Of a DNA stretch of 60,000 nucleotides, positions 30,966 through 60,000 are shown piece after piece; positions within the stretch are counted from its first letter, which is position 1, and the number at the start of each line of letters is the position of its first letter. The notes under the pieces are model-generated. The model did no database searches and was not told where the DNA came from. It saw only the letters and a program-made list of their open reading frames with translations. Both the position numbers and the translations under genes were made by a program. The stretch comes from Lama glama (lineage: Eukaryota), in the NCBI GenBank assembly GCA_028534125.1, contig CM052816.1, forward strand, positions 7,876,001 through 7,936,000, written 5' to 3'.

Positions 30966-31919
30966 CTGTAGGGGGAGAGATAAACCACAGGGAGGCTCAG
31001 CAGGACAAGGGTCCAGAGTTCTCCCTCCACTAAAAAAAAGGTGGGCAGTGGTGGGGGCATAATCCTAGAGCGCACTTCCCAGGGATGCTCGGGGGATGAA
31101 TTAATAGTGTAAAGCACTAAACCCAGTGCCTGGAACAGAGACGTGCTCTTATATGTGTTAGTTGCTATTATAATATTGACCCTGGGTATACGCTTAATTT
31201 CTCTGAACCTCAGTTTCCTTCTCTGTAAAATAGAGATGATGATAATAGTATCACTCTATGATCATTAAATGAGATGGTATATGTAAAATGCTTAGCTAGC
31301 ACTGTCCTAAGGCACGTAGCAAAAGTAGATGTTTGGTCATCTTTATTATTCTGCCACATCGCTCCCTCTCATCCCCTCCTGTCTCACCAGAAATTGAGTG
31401 GAGCAGGTTGAAAGGCCCTTGAGTTCATTCGAAGTGCCTCAGACTGCCTGCCGCCCTTTTGAAGCCTGGGGACAAACCACTCTTGCCTCCTTTCTCTACC
31501 AGCAGACTGTCTCATGGCCTTTGCTTCTTCCAGTGGGAAGAAGAGAAAGGGGGTCTGCATTTTCTCTTTTAGATAAAGCTTAGGTCCAATCTAAGTCCTG
31601 CTTGCTGCAGATTCAGTCCTGAGCACCTGGCTGTTCTGCACTTTTTGTAGAAGCCAGAGTCCCTTCACTCCAAGGCTCATCTGTCCCAATCCACTTTATA
31701 TTTTGTATCTGGAGAGAGATGCCTAAAGAGCTAACCCTTTTCTAGGATCACACAGCAAGGTAGGGGTCAGTCTGATGGCAACATCACAGCCTGCCCCAGC
31801 TGGGATTTGAGGGACCCCCCAGAGGGGCCAGAGGTCCTCACCTGGCTGTTTAGCTCTAGGCTAATGAGGGGCCCTCTCTGGGCCTCAGCTGCCTGTGAGC
31901 ACAATGTGGGCTTACTCAC

Positions 31920-32074
31920 CGCCCGCTGGCTGTCTGTGAACTCAAAGGTGAATTTCTGCACACGGCGCTGTCTCTTCTGGAAGAGGAGGGATCCTCGGTT
32001 GTTACGCAGTGATAGCTCCTCCATCATCAGGTCCTGGGGCACGCTCAGCTTCTTGCCCAGGTCCAGCACCGGGA
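31920..32074 (-). CDS. MYOZ3: MYOZ3 coding exon 2
   Basis: cag| (V)[51 protein letters not shown] |gtgagt; calsarcin signature. Confidence 0.97.
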
Positions 32075-32369
32075 CTGCCAGGAGAGGCCAGAGCCAGCTC
32101 TTACCATCAGACCCTCAGGGCGCTAGGGCTGCGGCCCCTTAAGAGGACCTCCTCACAGCTCCACCCGTTCTGTATGAGAAGGCCGATTTCTCCCCATACT
32201 TGCCGACACGGGGTGGAATCTTTGTCCACTCAGTGGGCAGAAATGATGTCCCTAAGTTTAATTTGCACGTATGTGATGCTCAGTGAAATTGAGCATCATT
32301 TCAGATGTTCTTTGGCCAGTTGTATTGATTCCAGGCACTTCCCGTGCAGCTCTTTGCCCACAGGGGTGA

Positions 32370-43536: not shown

Positions 43537-44226
43537 TTAGGTGGTGCAGGAGGCCTCGGTGGGGAGGCTGCCACGCTTGAGCCTCAGGCTGCCATTCCAC
43601 CCGCGGGGACAGATGTTGTAGCCGAGGATGCCGGGCGACTTAGCCCCGGAGTCCTCGGAATCAAGGGACACGTCGGAGTCCGTGGGCGAGCGGCGGTAGG
43701 GGAATGGCTTGGGCGGCACGGGCAGCGGGCTCTGGGGACTGGTGCAGAGCGAGGGCCCGGTGGGCAGTGGGCTCCGCGGGATGGGAGCGAATGTGGCCCC
43801 GGGCACCGCGGCCGAACCGGGGCGGGCGGGCTGCGGCGAGCGCATGCGCGGCGGCGGCGGCGGTGGCGGCGGCGGCGGCGGCGGAGGCGCCCTAGGCGGG
43901 GAGAACGGGCGCAGGCTCTCGGCGCCCGCCGGCCGCGGGGAGGCGCTCTTGCGCCGGGCCGCATTGATGATGTTTCGCGCCAGGAGCGCCTGCAGCTGGC
44001 GGCTGGGGGGCCGCGCCTCTGTCTCAGGTCGCAGCGGGGATACTGAGCGCTCGCTCCACGACGGGGACATGGGGGGCGGCGGTGGCGGCAGCGGCGGGGG
44101 GCTGCTCATGCTGCTCCCACGGCCCGGCTCCCACGGCCCCGGGCTCACCCAGCCATCCAGGCTGCTGGGGGGCCGGGATGTGCCCGGCGTCCAGGGCGGG
44201 GAGGTGGGTAGGCTCTCCCGGCGGTC
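43537..44226 (-). CDS. SYNPO: Synaptopodin long-isoform terminal exon
   Basis: ccag| DRRESLPTSPPWTPGTSRPPSSLDGWVSPGPWEPGRG...RQLQALLARNIINAARRKS...GYNICPRGWNGSLRLKRGSLPTEASCTT-TAA. 690 nt, phase 0, matching the donor at 49350. CpG-island-like. Confidence 0.95.
   Translation of the reverse strand, partial: DRRESLPTSPPWTPGTSRPPSSLDGWVSPGPWEPGRGSSMSSPPPLPPPPPPMSPSWSERSVSPLRPETEARPPSRQLQALLARNIINAARRKSASPRPAGAESLRPFSPPRAPPPPPPPPPPPPPRMRSPQPARPGSAAVPGATFAPIPRSPLPTGPSLCTSPQSPLPVPPKPFPYRRSPTDSDVSLDSEDSGAKSPGILGYNICPRGWNGSLRLKRGSLPTEASCTT
43849..43887. repeat. SYNPO: Coding (CGG)n repeat encoding poly-Pro13
   Basis: (CGG)5 TGG (CGG)6 AGG on +. Confidence 0.9.
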
Positions 44227-46307
44227 CTGGGGAGAGAGCAGAGAGGGTGGGGGCAGGCGTTAGTGCTGGGCTCCTCTGTACTGGGCTTTCAGAAGGGACC
44301 TACTCTGTTGTGTCCATTGTGCAGAATCGAGAAGCCAGCGACCACAGTCAGGTAGTGCCTGCAGTGAAACGCAGGTGCCCCAACTCTCAGCCCAGATGCT
44401 GGGAAGAGCCCACGCTGCCTGTCCCTGGGCTTCACGGGGAGGGGTTGACTAGCGATTAAGAACGCTCGCTTTGGAGATAAACCACTTTGCTTACTAAATG
44501 AACTCGGGCAAGTTGCTTCAGCTACAGAAGCAACTCAAAGCCCCTGGGCTTTAGTTTCCTCCTCTGTGAAATGGGAGTATAGCATCAGCACATACCCTAC
44601 AGGACTGTTGTGAGGAGTAAATGAGATAACTCATGTAAAGCAGTATCACTGTATCAGAAGATTCCCTGGAAGAGGGTAAGGTGCAACAGATGTTAGTTAT
44701 GGTAAAGGCATACTGGAAGGATACATGTGAAACCAACCAGAGTGGTTCCCTATTAGGAAACTGGGTGAACAGGGCAGGGTACACAGCCACAGGGGTAGGA
44801 ATAAAGCTGTTAAGGTATTACTTTTTAAATAAGTTTAAGGTTTTGAACTATATGGCTATATTATCTATTCAAAAAATTAAAACCAAAAATACTGGTCATT
44901 GTTACTAAGGTTGGACTTGAGGAAAGGCCCTCTCAGTCCCAGTCCCCTGCTGGGTTGCCATGGTCACCTCCTAATTGTTCCTTGGATACCTTGAACAGGG
45001 AGGAAGTTCCCACTGACAGATGGAAACATAAAGGGATGCTGGGTGGTTCCTCCCTAGGCAGCACAACCCCCTCAGTGGACTTCTTGCCAGCATGAGGTGA
45101 GGAGTGTGGACTGGGTGAGGCCAAGCTGGTGAACTTTGAGGTTATAAAGCACTGCTCTGCTATACACTACCTTTCCTGCGTCCTACCTCCTTAGGGACTT
45201 TCCAGCCTACAAAGTTCATTCTCATCCTTACTCTCTCACTAGCTCCTCACAGCAACCTGGTGAGGTAGCCTGCATTCTCACACTCATTTTACAATGATGA
45301 AAATGAAGTTCAGAGGTGTAAATAACTATCCGGTGCGTTCTGCCCCACCGGGATGTGTGTTTGTGTGAGAGAGACTATCTGCTGCTCATAGGCAGGGACA
45401 CCAGGCTTAAACAGCTTGACTGGCTTGAAAGTACAAGGCTTGGAGATCCATGCCCAGCATGTATCTGCTAAACCATCCAGTTGTTCAGCCAATCAGATTC
45501 CAGCAATAAGCCGGTTCACTCAGTCTTCAATCCAAATTCACCAGCAGTCATCCCTCAGAGTCCATTCAGTGTCTCCTACCCAATCAAAATCTAGAACCAT
45601 TCATAAGCTCCATTCTCTCATCCAATCAGTAACCAGCCACAGCCAAGCCAGTTGTCCAATCAGAATCGTCTCATCCAATCAGACTCTAATTTCTCCCAAT
45701 CAAAAAGAAGCAACAAAATATATGTCTTCTCCAAACAATGCAGCAGCTATTAGATGATAACAGACTCAGAAACAGAGCCCTTTAACCTAAAGAGGAATGT
45801 GGTGTGAATGTGTGAACAGGAGATTTTTCACGAGATGGTAATGTTAGGGATCTCCTGGGGACATCCAAGGCCCCAGTCATCAAGTAGGAAAGTTAAAGCT
45901 CAGCATGGGCTCTACCCTCCTTTACACCCAGGGTCAGAGTTGTCATACATGAGCCAGAGACACTGGGAGCTGCTGTCCCTGAGACACCTCAGGGATCTTT
46001 CAGTCAGTCTGTCTGTGGGAAGTGGAGCCAAGAGTTTATGATCCAAGCCCATCAGCGAGCACTGAGGCAGAGGAACCAGGGCTTTCAGTCAGGGGAAGAG
46101 CAGACTGGGGCAGGAGGAGCTATGATAACTGTCTGAAATCTCTAAAGGCTGTCTCTGCCTTTAGTAGCCACAAGGGGAAGGCTAGGCCAGCAAGTGGAAG
46201 GAATTTACTTCTCAGAACCCTAGGCTGGAATGGTAGGGGCAGTGGCGAGCAGCTCCTCATCCTTTGGAGCTGGGCCAGGGCCTGACCTCATCAGATCCAC
46301 CATGTCT

Positions 46308-49319: not shown

Positions 49320-51736
49320 TTACTTGAAGCAGAAGGAAGGCTTCCACACCTGAGCCTCGATCCCGGCATTACGGGTGGAGAAGGAGGGCCTGGGGGCCTG
49401 CTTGGCTCGGGGAGACCAGGCCCTGGAGGGAGACACGGGGGAGATATCACTGCTGTAGGTAGGGCTCACGGTAGTGGGCTGGAGGCCATCCTGGCCAGGG
49501 GAGGTGTAGAGGCCCGGTGAGTTGCGGGAGGGCCGAGGCAAGGCAGGAGACGGCGGGAGGGCCGCCTTGGGCAGGCTGGGTGCCAGGTCCAGGGAGCTCG
49601 GCTTGGCAGGTGAGGCGGCTCTGGGCGAGGCAGCTCTAGGCGAGGCCTTGGCAGGTTCCTTGATGGGTGAGAGGACGAACAGCGAGGGCCGCAGCTGGTA
49701 GGGTGGCTGCTTGGTGGGCTCTGGGCGCAGGACCCCGTTCTCAGGCAGGTAGCCATGGTAGAAGGAGGCAGGCGGGGTCCGAGCTGGGCTTCGGGATGCC
49801 ACTCGGAAGCCGCCAGGCGCATTCGTGGAGTACTTCCAGGATGAAGGCAGGGACATAGTGGGCGAAGGGCAGCGGGCCAGTTCCGTGTGGCCCGAAGACT
49901 CGATGACGTACTTCTCCATCCGGGACTGGCGGCGGGCGTAGAGCTCAGCCCCCTTCCCGGAGGCCTCGGAGAGGTTCTGGTTGGGTTTGGGCTTCGGCTT
50001 GGCCTGGATGCGCGGCGACTTGAGGCACGAGGCCCACTCGGGGAGAGTCTCCTCGGCGCCCGCGGGGCTGGCCCTGTCCCGGGCTGTGGGCTCCTGCTGG
50101 AAGTTGGAGGCCTCGGCCCCCAGCGCGAAGGGCTCCTCCTCCACGCCCGCCTCCCCCTGGTCTCTCTGCCTCCTCTTCTCATCAGCCGTCTGGACCAGAT
50201 CCAGCAGGTCTGGATTCGGGGTCACCTTGGGCTTCTCCACGAAGGTGAACATGGATTTCCGGCTGCCCCTGCGGGCCATTGACTCCTCCAGAATGCCTGT
50301 CTTGCTGGCAGGAACCGCCTGGCCCCTTAGATGAGAAGGCTTAGGGTCGGAGCAGGGGTACAGGGCAGAGTAAGAGGGGGGAGACCTAACCCGGGAAGCC
50401 AGGGGGGCCGTGGACAAGGTCTCAGCATAGGTAGGGGGCGGGGTGAAGGCTCCCAAGGGGCGTCTCTCCAAGGCGGGGCTTCGCTGTGCCATGGGCCTCC
50501 TCTCCAGCATGGGGCTGTGGGACATTACGTGTCTCTGTGGCCGAGGGCTCCGGTCTGCCATGCTGGGGGGCTGGGTAGCTGGGGCCTTCTCCCCAAGATG
50601 TCGTCTCTCTATCATGGGGCTCCGCTCCATCTGGCTGGTGCTCCCTGAAGCCTGGATCCCAAAGGGCCTGGCTGTCCTGTTGACCACGGATGGGGGCTTG
50701 GCCAGCGTGAGGTGGACCTCGCTGTACAGCTTGGTGGGCATGGTTGTGGCTGCCTGCCCGGACATCTCTTGTTCTGCTGACACCACTGGGGCGCCGAGCT
50801 GGACATCGATGAGCAGGGAGCTGGACATGAAATCTGGGGCTGGGGGCCCGGAGCTGGAGATGGGAGTAACTTCTCTGGAGAAGGCGCTGGTGGTGGTAGA
50901 TGGAGCTGATACCTTATCAATTACGAGGGTGCTGGATCTCACCTCTGCAGCTGGCTCCTGGGGCTGCCCACCAGCACACAGGGTGCTGGGTTTGAAATCT
51001 GGCACTGTGCCATTAGGCGGGAGTTGTGCTTCTGAAGAATTCTGTTGGACACTAGAAAGTGGCAGGCTCTGCGGGGTGACAGTTGCCGGTAGGTTCTGAT
51101 TGACATCTGTGGCTGGCAGGTTGTGGTTGCTGTTAGAAGCTGGAGTGATGAGCGTGGTGCTGGATGAGGGGAGGTTTTGGTTGACATCTGCGGCTGGGCT
51201 GTGGACCTCCGGGGGTGGGGTTGGTGGGGTTGGTGGGGTTGGTGGGGTCTCCTGGGCTTCTCGGTTCTGGGACAGGTGGAGCCCATTGGCTGTCAGCAGG
51301 GCGGCGTTCTCCTTTAAATAAACCACCAGTGGTACCTCTTCCTCCTCACTGGCCATCTTCTCCAGGTGCCGCAGCAAGCTGGCCTCCTCTGAGCAGCCCT
51401 CCATGCTGTGACCAGGGACCCTTATATCAGAGCTCTGGCAGTTGGGGTTTCTCGGAGGGCCTGGCTTAGGGACTGAGGTGGCACTCAGGCTGAGCCCTGG
51501 GGCATGGCCTGTGGGGCTGGCAGGGGTCACTCGGAGGGACTCCTGGCTGGGCTTCTGTCCCCTCTGGCCGTGGCTCTCCAAGGTGAACTCATTCACCCTC
51601 TGCCGGCGCCTGTTGAAGAGCTGGACTCCGCGGGAGTTGGAGCTGGGAGGGGTGGTCAGCTGGGCTGCGATCTGCTGGCTCCTCGCCTTGGCCTCTTTTA
51701 GATCCTTCTCGGTGAGGCTGGTGCTCCGGCCCAATG
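49320..51736 (-). CDS. SYNPO: Synaptopodin large central exon
   Basis: Acceptor ctgcag| at 51737. Open frame (A)[26 protein letters not shown]...; first in-frame ATG at 51404 (MEGCSEEAS). Contains PPTY and PPSY motifs. It either reads through to [18 protein letters not shown] (694 aa from MEG) or splices at CAG|gtgtgg (exon end 49350) to 44226 (914 aa). Confidence 0.96.
51214..51248. repeat. SYNPO: Coding 9-bp tandem repeat (GGTGGGGTT, about 4 copies) encoding (TPP)4
   Basis: Read directly; protein [16 protein letters not shown]. Confidence 0.9.
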
Positions 51737-52019
51737 CTGCAGGAGGGACAGAGGCCCAGTTAGCAATGGAATTGCAGAGCCACAGGGTACACAGGCAGAC
51801 AGACAGACAGTCACCCGTGCTCCTCCTACAGACGGCCTTTTCCCGTGGAATTTGATCTTTACTCACTATTTCCTAGAATCCCCTCTCCTCATAAACATCC
51901 CTGACCCAATCATCATGGCCCAACTCAAATGCCACAGCCTGTGTAATACTTCCCCTGATTACCTTTTCAATATTAACCAATCCCTTCCTTGTTTGGATTC
52001 CTCCCGAAAGGTTATTGAC

Positions 52020-56090: not shown

Positions 56091-57174
56091 ATCTCATTTC
56101 CTAACTCCCCTGCCCTCCAGACCCTGACTCTAGAAGGAGGTGCACCAGTAGATGCTCTGGGGCACCCGGATGGGGGTCTGCAGAGTCCTCTGTTTCCGCA
56201 GCTCGCGATCAGCACCCCCAGCAGTGCCCTCTCCTCTGCACGCTCAGCTGCCTAGAACAGCTCATGCTTTCTCTCCCTTCTGCCTCTCGGGAGAAGAGCT
56301 GATAAATGCATTCTTTCTAAGGCAGAAATGACCGCTAGGACTAAAACACCAGTGGAGTGGAAAGAGCACAGTATTGGGAGTCAGGAGACCCAAGTTCAAG
56401 TCGGGCTCTGATGGGGATAAGCCCTTTCTCCCACCCCTATCATTTCTGTAGGCAATCAGTTCTGCTGGCCACAGGCCTTTTGGACTGAGGATCCAAAGGA
56501 GGTGGTGCAGGGGAACGGAGGCCAGAGCAGAAGGTCAGGTCAGGGAGAGAATTCAAGGAAATGCTTCTTCACACGGCTGCCGTCAGTGGGAGTGCCCAGG
56601 CCCCGGGTAGGGTGGAGAGGGACGGGGAGCCAGAGGTAGGAATAGAGACTGGCTGGAGACGGCCCATTGTGGCTGCCTGGGAGTCTTGGCAACGGGACAG
56701 GTAAACAGGCTGGGTAAACTGCCCCCCTGGTGGGGTCAGGAAGGAACCAATGGCTGGCCGCTGCACAAGCTCAGCCTCAGCTGGGGCAGGAAGATGAACT
56801 GGGCCTGAGTAATGGCCTGGCTACCTTGCCAGCCCCTGCCCCACATCCTCCCTGCTGAAAGGAGGAAATGACACAGCCTCCATTCCCAAGGGAGTTCTCC
56901 ATCCATGCCAAAGTCCTGGTGAGTGCAACCTGATGGAGCCCCGGCAGACTGCTAGGCCTCGTCTCAGGAGGAGAATAATTCATACTAAGGTGGGAAGGAC
57001 TGCCAGACACGAAAGATGCATAGGAATGGAAGTGGGGAGCCCTGCCACTAACCAACTGGCAGAAATCATCACGTGCCTCTCCCTTGATGTCCAGAGGGGA
57101 ACTGAGACCAAAGAGGGATGCAGAATGCCCCAAGTCACACACCCTAAACCGCAAAGGCACCTTTGGGTGCTCAC

Positions 57175-57355
57175 CTTACTCACTCCGGCTGGGTCCTCCC
57201 TGCAGCCCAGCTTCCCCCGGATGCTGAGCCGGCCTCGGTTCCCAAAGCCTCCGGGGAAGGCAGCCAGTCGACTAGCTGACAAAGAGGAAAATCCCACATC
57301 GACGGCAGCGCGGAGGAGCTCGATGTGACTTCTCTCCTCCACAGATGACTCAGCT
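57175..57355 (-). other. SYNPO: Candidate SYNPO 5' (first) exon
   Basis: CpG-enriched unique segment ending in a strong donor AAG|GTGAGC (exon end 57175), with further GT donors 5 and 9 nt upstream. Lies immediately downstream of promoter motifs. Resembles my recollection of the mammalian SYNPO 5' UTR (not verified). Confidence 0.65.
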
Positions 57356-57600
57356 CAGCTCTTTATCAGGAAAAATGATTTTGCAACAGCCTTTTAAATG
57401 GCCTCTCCGCCACAAAGTCTCTCCCCCGCCAATCTACCCACCCCACGCTGCCAGATTCATCCCCCAGCCCCCACCCTGGCTCCACCGGTGTCATGCCTCT
57501 TTCCTGCCTCTCCAGGACGAGGAGGATCAAGCGGCAACTCCTCATCCTGGCATTCAGGGCCCCTGACGTCAGGGCCTGCCTGAAGGCTTGCTCACCTGCT
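57340..57600 (-). promoter_or_regulatory. SYNPO: Candidate SYNPO promoter
   Basis: AP-1 TGACTCA at 57346-57352, GATA site near 57363-57368, TATA-like CATTTAAAA near 57392-57400, GC box near 57424-57430, and perfect CRE TGACGTCA at 57564-57571 inside a 14-bp palindrome. Confidence 0.6.
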
Positions 57601-60000
57601 CTCTGTACCCTCAGCAGCCAGAGGGAGTCCAACGGCTCACGTTCCCACACCTGCCCTGTGAGTTCTGGCCTTCGCTGTGGGGTTTGCACACACCCACCTG
57701 GAACCCTTCTGTTTCCTCTCCTTTCTACATGCTCAACCCCCTCAGCCTTCCCACCTAACTTGAATGGCACCACCCCCTCCAGAAAGCCTCCCTGTTTTAT
57801 CTGCACCCTTAATAACCTCACCACGTTGCATATTATTCATTTCAGTAAGAGGTTCCCTCCAGGGCGTGCTCACCACATGCCAGGCCCTGGTTTCATTTAC
57901 AGCAGCCACAAGGCCAGCAGTCCCCTCACCTCCATGTTAGAGAAGAAATGGGCTCAGAGGGGTAAAGTGACTTGCTCAAGATGGCAAAGCTAATCAGAGC
58001 AGAATTGGGATTCAAGCCCAGGGTGGCCTAGCACCCAGCCCGAGGCCCATCACGTGGGCCATGCTGCCTCCTCCCAACATCTTGCCCTGCAGCAATAAGT
58101 GTCTGGGTCTTATATCCCCCCAGAGATTGCAAGCACCTTGGGGGCAGGAGCCTCAAAAGCGTCATTCCTGTGTCCTGCCTTATACCCTACACCTTCCCCG
58201 GGGCTTGCAGAACAATGATGAAGTCCATGAGGATGATAACAGCCAACATAAGAGGAGTGACAGATGCTGGCAAGATAAGGGTTTAGCATGTATTTTCTCA
58301 TCAAATCCTCACCAAAGCTCATCAAGGGAGGCCCCCTTACCTCTGTTTTACAGACGAAGAAAATGAGACCCAGAGAATTAGCAAACTCACCCCGGCTCTC
58401 ACACCCAGCAAGGGACAGGCAGAGCAAAGCTGGAGCTGGGAGTCTTACTGATCCCAAGCCTGGGCCCCTCCTTCTGAAGAGCTCAGCCCACAGAGCACAC
58501 TCACTTTCCCCACCCACTGCTTTGGCCCAGCCCAAATGCCACTTCCTCCAGGAAGCTCTCATTAGTCCATCCAGACTCCTAGATGACTGCTCCTCCCCTG
58601 CTCAACCTGGCCCAGGGGCCTTGGAACAAGAGAGGGGCTTGTAGGAAGCAATGGGTTGAGAAAGCTCAGGAACCAAGGCCCAAGGGGAAGGAGGCTGAGA
58701 CTGGTCCAACTCCTAGTAGCTTCTTGCTGGCAGGAGGTCGGGATCAGGCGGGGCAGGATGGGTGGGTTGGGGGGAACCTAAGACAAGGGCCCCCAGGTCG
58801 GCATGGGCCTTGGGTAGCAGCTATCCTTGCAGACCACTACTCACTGCTGGCTGACGAGGACCCTGCTGTGGGGTCCTCCTCTGCCAAGGGCCAGGAGCCA
58901 CCACCTCCCTCCTACCTACTATACTGGACTAAACATTAATCTACAATTAGATTTTTAGGGACTTGGAAATGGTGACCCAGAGAGAGGCAGGCTCCACCCC
59001 AGGTGCACAGCAAACTGGAAAGGGCTGGTTCACAGGGAGCCAAGCTCAGACCCAGCCTCCCACCTCCCAGTACATCCCTGGTAAGCCAGGCCTGCCCTCC
59101 CCTCAGGCCCCTAGCGCTCTCCTGCTGCATCAGTCTCCATCATCCCAGCCCTGAAGGCCTTGAAGGAACAGAAACGATGCCAAACCCTACCCTTCCAGAG
59201 AAAACACTTAATCCAGGAGACAAAAAGGTGGTGCACCAGGGCAGGAGAGAGAGAATTCTGCCCAATCTGTGCCTCTGCCAGGGGCAGGGCTGGGCCCAGT
59301 CTATCTCTGGGTCCTCAGCCCCCAGCCCAGGGCCTAGCACACTTTGGGCCCTCTACAATGATACAGCTCTTCCTTTTGGCCCTGTGGCAGCCTGGGGCTA
59401 GGGCTGGTCCCATCCTCTCTCAATGCCCTGGACTCAGCAGAGGCTATCACCTGGGACAGGTTCACTAAGCGTTGACTAAATAAATGACTGAAAGTTGAGC
59501 ACTCCCACAATCCAAATCCACCTTCACGTTTTACTCCACCATTCATCCCCCGAGATGAAATCCAGATTTCTCTAGATCCGAGACTCATCTAGATTCTAGA
59601 TCAGAGATCTAGAGGTTGATTCCTAGAGGAAAGACGGGAGAGGAAGGAGGGAGGGAGCAACAAGTGGGTGAAGTAGAAGATGAAATCTCAAATGGCAGCG
59701 TTAGATCTAAGAGGCAGAATATTCCACTGAGTGTCGGGAAAAATATAGAGTCTAAGAGCACTGAATCAGGATGAAACAATCTGGGAAGGCTTCCTGGAGG
59801 AGATGGCGTGTGCCCTAGGTCTTGAAAGATGGACATGTGTAAATCCCAAGCCACAGGATAGCCCAGCGGGGCCTGGAAGGTTCAAAGCTATCTTCACCCT
59901 CTTTCCTTACCCTCAACTCCACTCACAGCCCCATCAAGACAGCTGGAGAGAAAGACTGAGGAACACGCCCACTCTGTGGGTTTGCCCAGAGGCTGTAGGT

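Follow-up and report, generated by a model that had tools for sequence, protein, structure and literature searches.

A tandem-donor cluster at the end of a non-coding SYNPO first exon in Lama glama and the reading frames that it joins to synaptopodin

Tandem donors, non-AUG extensions and the isoforms of SYNPO

N-terminal extensions of annotated proteins that start at non-AUG codons are reportedly covered by a review (PMC12045569). According to the available sections of one human catalogue, thousands of mRNAs carry such extensions, without evidence of selection (PMC9789052). Tandem 5' splice sites have been described as well (PMC2423196, PMC8055015, PMC1779574): in the accessible part of PMC2423196 (Table 4), the motif GYNNGY is found at 58,098 of 113,356 constitutive human donors, while the accessible part of PMC8055015 reports that in human tissues one site of a tandem donor usually prevails, the minor one being at least ten times lower, and judges most minor sites to be noise. 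As for SYNPO itself, a 2026 paper on its isoforms (PMC13759171), from whose available text the exon numbering and the human primers used here are taken, has the SYNPOa and SYNPOb mRNAs (short N-terminus) begin with exon 3 as their first exon, and derives the N-terminal extension of SYNPOc and SYNPOd from exons 1-2 together with the start of exon 4a. The same paper names mouse gastrocnemius as lacking the 5'-extension RNA.

The window (the whole stretch of 60,000 nucleotides of Lama glama DNA analysed here) carries on its minus strand a SYNPO leader exon that can be set against each of these systems. As in the tandem sites of those papers, its GTs lie 4, 5 and 9 nt apart in donor-like contexts, the pair 4 nt apart arises from the consensus GTGAGT itself, and the cluster sits in non-coding sequence, where a shift of any size disturbs no coding frame; it differs in that the site closest to consensus (exon end 57175) is not the junction type of the relatives, and in that use of more than one site is putative. 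As in the non-AUG extensions catalogued in PMC9789052, a CTG preceded by a purine at -3 would lie in frame with the AUG in the form spliced from 57184, with no stop between them, but the leader frame is unconserved, the CTG has C at +4, and the greater part of the "extension" belongs to the known coding sequence of another isoform. Compared with the SYNPOa-d promoter and first-exon isoforms, as far as the available text of PMC13759171 describes them, the same exon 4a codons give an N-terminal extension and the leader exon is the first exon of SYNPOa/b transcripts, whereas the known route to the extension is a separate AUG exon 19.5 kb upstream and not the leader. Finally, Equus quagga isoform X2 (P0012) has the orthologous exon in the 57184 frame, with the junction ..GGPSRT/LGRS.. 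(a slash marks a splice junction throughout), although the zebra AUG is absent in the window, where a TAG stands four codons before the conserved ..GCL...

Gene, leader exon and source of the open codons

The features on which the locus is built are the following.

49320 to 51736, minus strand: large coding exon 4a/4b, entered in phase 1, with the main ATG at 51404-51402 and the stop at 49322-49320.
57175 to 57365, minus strand: non-coding SYNPO first exon of the short-N-terminus mRNAs, with an estimated 5' end and its 3' end at 57184 or 57175.
57392 to 57398, minus strand: TATA-like TTTAAAA, read directly, about 30 nt upstream of the estimated transcript start and putative in function.

The gene had been named as SYNPO in the preliminary description, and this is confirmed by the 99% identity of the large ORF (49320-51872, minus strand) to synaptopodin of Vicugna pacos, the closest named protein. 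The segment in question had also been called a SYNPO first exon. At 57287-57306 lies a match, differing at 2 bases, to the human exon-3 forward primer (hu 3f), where 0.01 chance matches are expected; the exon is therefore that non-coding first exon, "exon 3" in the available text of PMC13759171, and is orthologous to the human exon used for SYNPOa/b-specific RT-PCR. Five runs catalogued as RNA, from two studies, contain 16-17 of the 27 sampled words of 57150-57420 at the level of a word index, and this share would fit an exon of about 180 nt starting about 30 nt after TTTAAAA. It is because of the RNA word share and the TATA-like box that the start is estimated to lie near 57365. A retrocopy preserving the junction was rejected, as a DNA search of the llama's own genome with 57100-57420 returned the locus itself only.

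Position 51736, preceded by a pyrimidine tract and CAG (...tccctcctgcag), opens the next exon, whose first ATG is at 51404; scripted translation reproduced the earlier statement that this exon is entered in phase 1 and stays open for about 110 codons before that ATG. The N-terminal extension has its second half in the first 110 whole codons of the large exon. Outside the window, the same assembly matches residues 1-134 of P0001, the alpaca protein, at 99% (G000:C1:7952643-7953044, minus strand), and this AUG-bearing upstream exon, which lies about 19.5 kb upstream of the leader exon, reads ATG CTG GGC CCC CAC ... AAACCAG/GTAAGT (MLGPHLPPPP...). It ends in phase 1 and therefore supplies the G of the junction codon G/CA. 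By eye, the human exon-2 primer, as given in the available text of PMC13759171, can also be made out in this upstream exon, at 2 differences. The 110 open codons are thus explained, because AUG-started isoforms with the long N-terminus use them as coding sequence: they are ordinary coding sequence of those isoforms.

The extension had further been described as holding a calsarcin-like motif, a claim that stands as a likeness but not as a family assignment. The whole large exon has a Pfam Calsarcin match at residues 587-628 (31.5 bits), while the 111-aa extension part scores 15.9 bits against PF05556 (E 0.0098, residues 33-73), below the cut-off of 24. The motif of the extension does resemble that in a neighbouring exon at 31770-32114 (minus strand), which has a Calsarcin/myozenin match of 72.8 bits (E 4.2e-20) and most likely belongs to the neighbouring myozenin gene. 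Among UniRef entries, P0063 from rat bears the name "Myozenin 3" but is a synaptopodin-like protein of 986 aa.

At the other end of the gene, the short isoform continues past ..GIEAQ into VWKPSFCFK and the stop at 49322-49320, and the stretch 43540-44229 (minus strand), matched at 86% by residues 912-1141 of Orcinus orca isoform X1, is the exon that gives the long SYNPO isoforms their C-terminal extension. The window holds 600 N in two runs, away from the 5' region of SYNPO.

Donors, joined frames and an upstream ORF

The 3' end of the leader exon reads on the minus strand ...CCCAGCCGGA/GTGA/GTAAG/GTGAGCACC, that is ...CCGGA/GTGA/GTAAG/GTGAGC, with GT dinucleotides at 57183-57182, 57179-57178 and 57174-57173 and hence possible exon ends at 57184, 57180 and 57175. 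Direct reading of the strand thus bears out the three overlapping GT donors of the preliminary description. They lie within the spacing used to define tandem sites, at least two GT or GC donors within 2-12 nt. Scores come from a simple weight matrix (PWM) of human donor frequencies and from duplexes with the U1 5' end.

57176 to 57186, minus strand, including two further intron bases: donor 1, GGA/GTGAGT, exon end 57184; 1.96 bits by PWM, U1 duplex -8.1 kcal/mol.
57174 to 57182, minus strand: donor 2, TGA/GTAAGG, exon end 57180; 0.32 bits by PWM, U1 duplex -5.0 kcal/mol.
57169 to 57177, minus strand: donor 3, AAG/GTGAGC, exon end 57175; 6.84 bits by PWM, U1 duplex -9.6 kcal/mol.

Donor 57175 is the closest of the three to consensus, and its score is equalled or exceeded at 20 of the 5951 GTs in the window. 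The GT of donor 57180 is the +5/+6 GT of donor 57184 (GTGAGT), so that the 57184/57180 pair is the consensus GTGAGT read twice, with an apparent second donor. On the two strands of the window taken together, there are three places where three donor-like GTs, none scoring below 57180, fall within 10 nt. SYNPO was not found in the searched part of the PMC8055015 supplements (9 files, about 101,000 characters), which probably does not include the full catalogue.

Each donor was joined by script to the acceptor at 51736 and the product translated. Two further positions matter for the frame of donor 57184.

57272 to 57274, minus strand: TAG that closes the 57184 frame upstream, found by scripted translation.
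57203 to 57205, minus strand: CTG, in frame when donor 57184 is used and 7 codons ahead of the junction codon; its context has G at -3 and C at +4.

Joined from 57184, the frame is open back to the TAG at 57274-57272, with 140 codons free of stop or AUG before the main ATG and the CTG at 57205-57203 in frame, which reproduces what had been described. Donor 57180 does lead into a different open frame, also as proposed, and this one extends to a TGA at 57357-57355 over 169 codons (AESSVEERSHIELLRAA...). From donor 57175 the mRNA has a TAA at 57178-57176, immediately before the donor, then the junction codon G/CA and 111 open codons before ATG 51404. The earlier claim that this donor closes the frame holds in that the TAA is present before the junction. 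It does not hold as an "off" state for non-AUG access, because the second codon of the next exon, TTG 51734-51732, stays in frame whichever of the three donors is joined to it. The in-frame near-cognate codons with no stop before the ATG are CTG 57205, in the 57184 form only, and TTG 51734, in all forms; the context of the TTG, with G or A at -3 and G at +4, is better than that of the CTG.

We then asked how much of the open leader is expected by chance. Among 20,000 shuffles the 29-codon leader frame was open in 54% and the 58-codon frame in 17%, and the open frames were accordingly rejected as a coding signal. A hairpin downstream of the CTG that would boost initiation was likewise rejected, as the minimum free energy of -19.4 kcal/mol is nothing special against shuffles (z -0.55). 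Comparison with the wolverine found the reading frame of the leader part of the extension not conserved across species: the N-terminus of that species corresponds first to the 57180 frame of the window and then to its 57184 frame, and there are additional shifts. The zebra keeps the 57184 frame across 28 residues. Conservation does extend over the exon 4a part of the extension, there as coding sequence of the AUG-started isoforms. Since the wolverine frames shift relative to the window and the open frames are at chance level, the leader shows no coding constraint, and the pattern of donors and open frames is mostly at chance level.

The leader also contains an upstream ORF (uORF) in the third frame.

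57297 to 57299, minus strand: upstream ATG (uATG) that opens the uORF, in a weak context with T at -3 and T at +4.
57180 to 57182, minus strand: TGA stop of the uORF, retained with donors 57180 and 57175 and destroyed with 57184.

This uATG is the sole ATG between 57400 and 57175; it precedes CTG 57205, which is located inside the uORF. With donor 57180 or 57175 the uORF counts 39 codons, and with 57184 it counts 87 and ends at a stop in the next exon (51591-51589). Donor 57184 removes the uORF stop, and therefore donor choice would alter translation of the leader even if no extended protein were made. In one reading this is how donor choice acts, 57184 lengthening the uORF into the next exon and lowering re-initiation at 51404, while donors 57175 and 57180 retain the short version. 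The uORF was computed in all three splice forms and its uATG is common to human, where it falls within a published primer of PMC13759171. The weak context of the uATG speaks against such a role, as do its apparent absence from the wolverine, whose protein has Ser where the window has Cys, and the distance of at least 185 nt that separates the end of the uORF from the main ATG in every splice form; in addition, use of both donors is itself only putative. We regard control through the uORF as very unlikely.

Leaky non-AUG initiation would need no switch at all: a few ribosomes would start at CTG 57205 in the 57184 form or at TTG 51734 in all forms, yielding, independently of donor choice, low levels of synaptopodin that carries the second half of the extension. 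With donor 57175 or 57184, the 111-140 codons left open ahead of the ATG would permit this, the TTG with its purine at -3 and G at +4 and the CTG with its G at -3 are suitably placed, and the weak uAUG context would let many ribosomes scan past. UUG is a poor start codon, which counts against leaky initiation, and there is no stable structure after the CTG to assist it. Thousands of human mRNAs do have such extensions, as PMC9789052 states, and SYNPO was not found in 12 of the 13 supplementary files of that catalogue, an absence that is weak evidence because the catalogue may have used the long isoform as its reference. The preliminary description had allowed that non-AUG initiation of SYNPO might already be reported, but no such paper was found in the literature searched. 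Altogether we consider leaky initiation unlikely, while granting it a real share of the probability.

Junctions in relatives and the reading of the locus

In order to see which junctions relatives carry, 163 SYNPO proteins were sorted by the residues that precede ..LGRSTS... A 57184-type junction (..PS?T/LG, junction codon A/CA), which links the leader exon in its 57184 frame to the large coding exon, is present in 4 of the 163, whereas 57175-type and 57180-type junctions were found in none, the 57175 type being invisible in proteins if the TAA is conserved. This count, four against zero for the other types, is what is new here. The join from the upstream AUG exon (..QKPA/LG..) accounts for 67 of the 163 proteins, and nine ORFs begin exactly at the TTG codon, which is compatible with either a 57184-type or a 57175-type junction.

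The four proteins come from distant sources. P0012 is isoform X2 of Equus quagga (XP_046522442.1, an NCBI model); it starts MSEVIGCLSRRLGEPRPAQHRGETGLQGGPSRT-LGRS, its N-terminus is 82% identical to window 57265-57182 over 28 residues, and in this predicted gene model the orthologous exon carries an AUG in the 57184 frame. P0138 is a partial protein of Gulo gulo, the wolverine, P0046 is an ORF from an assembled public run with 99% identity to a hedgehog protein, and P0036 is an assembled-run ORF that is hystricomorph-rodent-like, being nearest to Octodon, Heterocephalus and Fukomys. As this junction is present in relatives belonging to four groups of mammals, the 57184-type donor appears to be old and authentic. 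The AUG-started zebra model through the orthologous exon means, in turn, that in-frame translation of the leader is not far-fetched. Short ORFs spanning the junction gave 4 matches among 22 candidates, none of them from the leader exon, and residues 1-40 of the zebra isoform used as a query retrieved only the zebra itself among 7 candidates.

Besides, other short AUG-bearing first exons join exon 4a in the same phase (..A/LGRS) in many species, as models or assembled ORFs: such variants are P0006, P0015, P0018, P0028, P0035, P0074, P0096, P0129 and P0161, with first-exon peptides that include MDLAAWA in minke whale, MNDGTQCEA in Equus and MRGPLAAAGA in rabbit-like ORFs. With so many models of alternative first exons, access to the second half of the extension seems therefore to be common in mammals. 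Within the window, an ORF at 58395-58562 (minus strand; MRASWRKWHLGW...) shares 84% identity with residues 1-56 of Pseudorca crassidens isoform X2 (P0003, an NCBI model), in which that stretch runs straight into ..GRSTS..; there may therefore be one more alternative first exon, some 1.2 kb upstream of the leader. At the position corresponding to the P0003 join, the window shows no obvious donor GT.

The preliminary description had seen in this arrangement a regulated switch, in which the choice between 57184 (open, with a CTG start) and 57175 (closed by the TAA) would set whether a partly extended protein is made. The sequence anatomy is exactly as first described, the 57184-type junction is real in relatives, with an AUG-started version predicted in Equus quagga, and donors 57184 and 57175 both look usable by PWM and U1 pairing. 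The in-frame junction of donor 57184 is accordingly the part of the idea that survives. The part that does not is the "off" state, since 57175 leaves TTG 51734 in frame. The CTG also has its C at +4 and sits within the uORF that starts at 57299, the leader frames are not conserved in the wolverine, the minor sites of tandem donors are mostly noise in the accessible part of PMC8055015, and donor 57180 is merely the intrinsic +5/+6 GT of donor 57184. We give such a regulated switch scarcely any credence.

A broader form of the same idea would have a tissue-dependent competition between 57184 and 57175 set the level of a CUG-started synaptopodin (AUG-started in the zebra) that contains the calsarcin-like half of the extension, independently of the far-upstream promoter. 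Here the downstream donor, stronger-looking, would both insert the TAA and restore the uORF stop, and 57184 would be the conserved partner. This proposal as a whole seems to us highly improbable.

On a modest balance of the evidence, the segment is probably an ordinary non-coding first exon with a cluster of tandem donors, one of which is dominant, and with translation from ATG 51404. The mRNAs from the exon-3 promoter would encode the isoforms with the short N-terminus and start at that ATG. The exon would end in the consensus-type donor GGA/GTGAGT (57184), with the further consensus donor AAG/GTGAGC nine bases on, and one of the two would probably dominate in any given tissue, as is usual for tandem donors; the relatives favour 57184 as the dominant site, consensus strength favours 57175. 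Isoforms with the long N-terminus start in the AUG exon, some 19.5 kb upstream, from which exon 4a is entered in the same phase. For the leader exon itself we infer that one donor dominates and that initiation is mostly at 51404; the in-frame join of the leader through 57184 is most likely fortuitous, and any protein from CTG 57205 or TTG 51734 would be a minor by-product and not the output of a splice switch.

Some observations run against the ordinary first exon. Donor 57175 scores 6.84 bits against 1.96 for 57184, yet the relatives show the 57184 type, which would fit competition between the two sites. Moreover, the 140 stop-free codons of the 57184 form, with their CTG and well-placed TTG, have the classic layout of a non-AUG extension.

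If the switch between donors were true, cells with a silent far-upstream promoter could still make a partly extended synaptopodin, and this could account for unassigned bands on synaptopodin blots. As it stands the finding matters little, since a leader with tandem donors is very common and the open frame is explained by known isoforms. Its useful by-products are a 57184-type junction common to distant mammals, an AUG in frame with it in one species and a uORF whose length depends on the donor.
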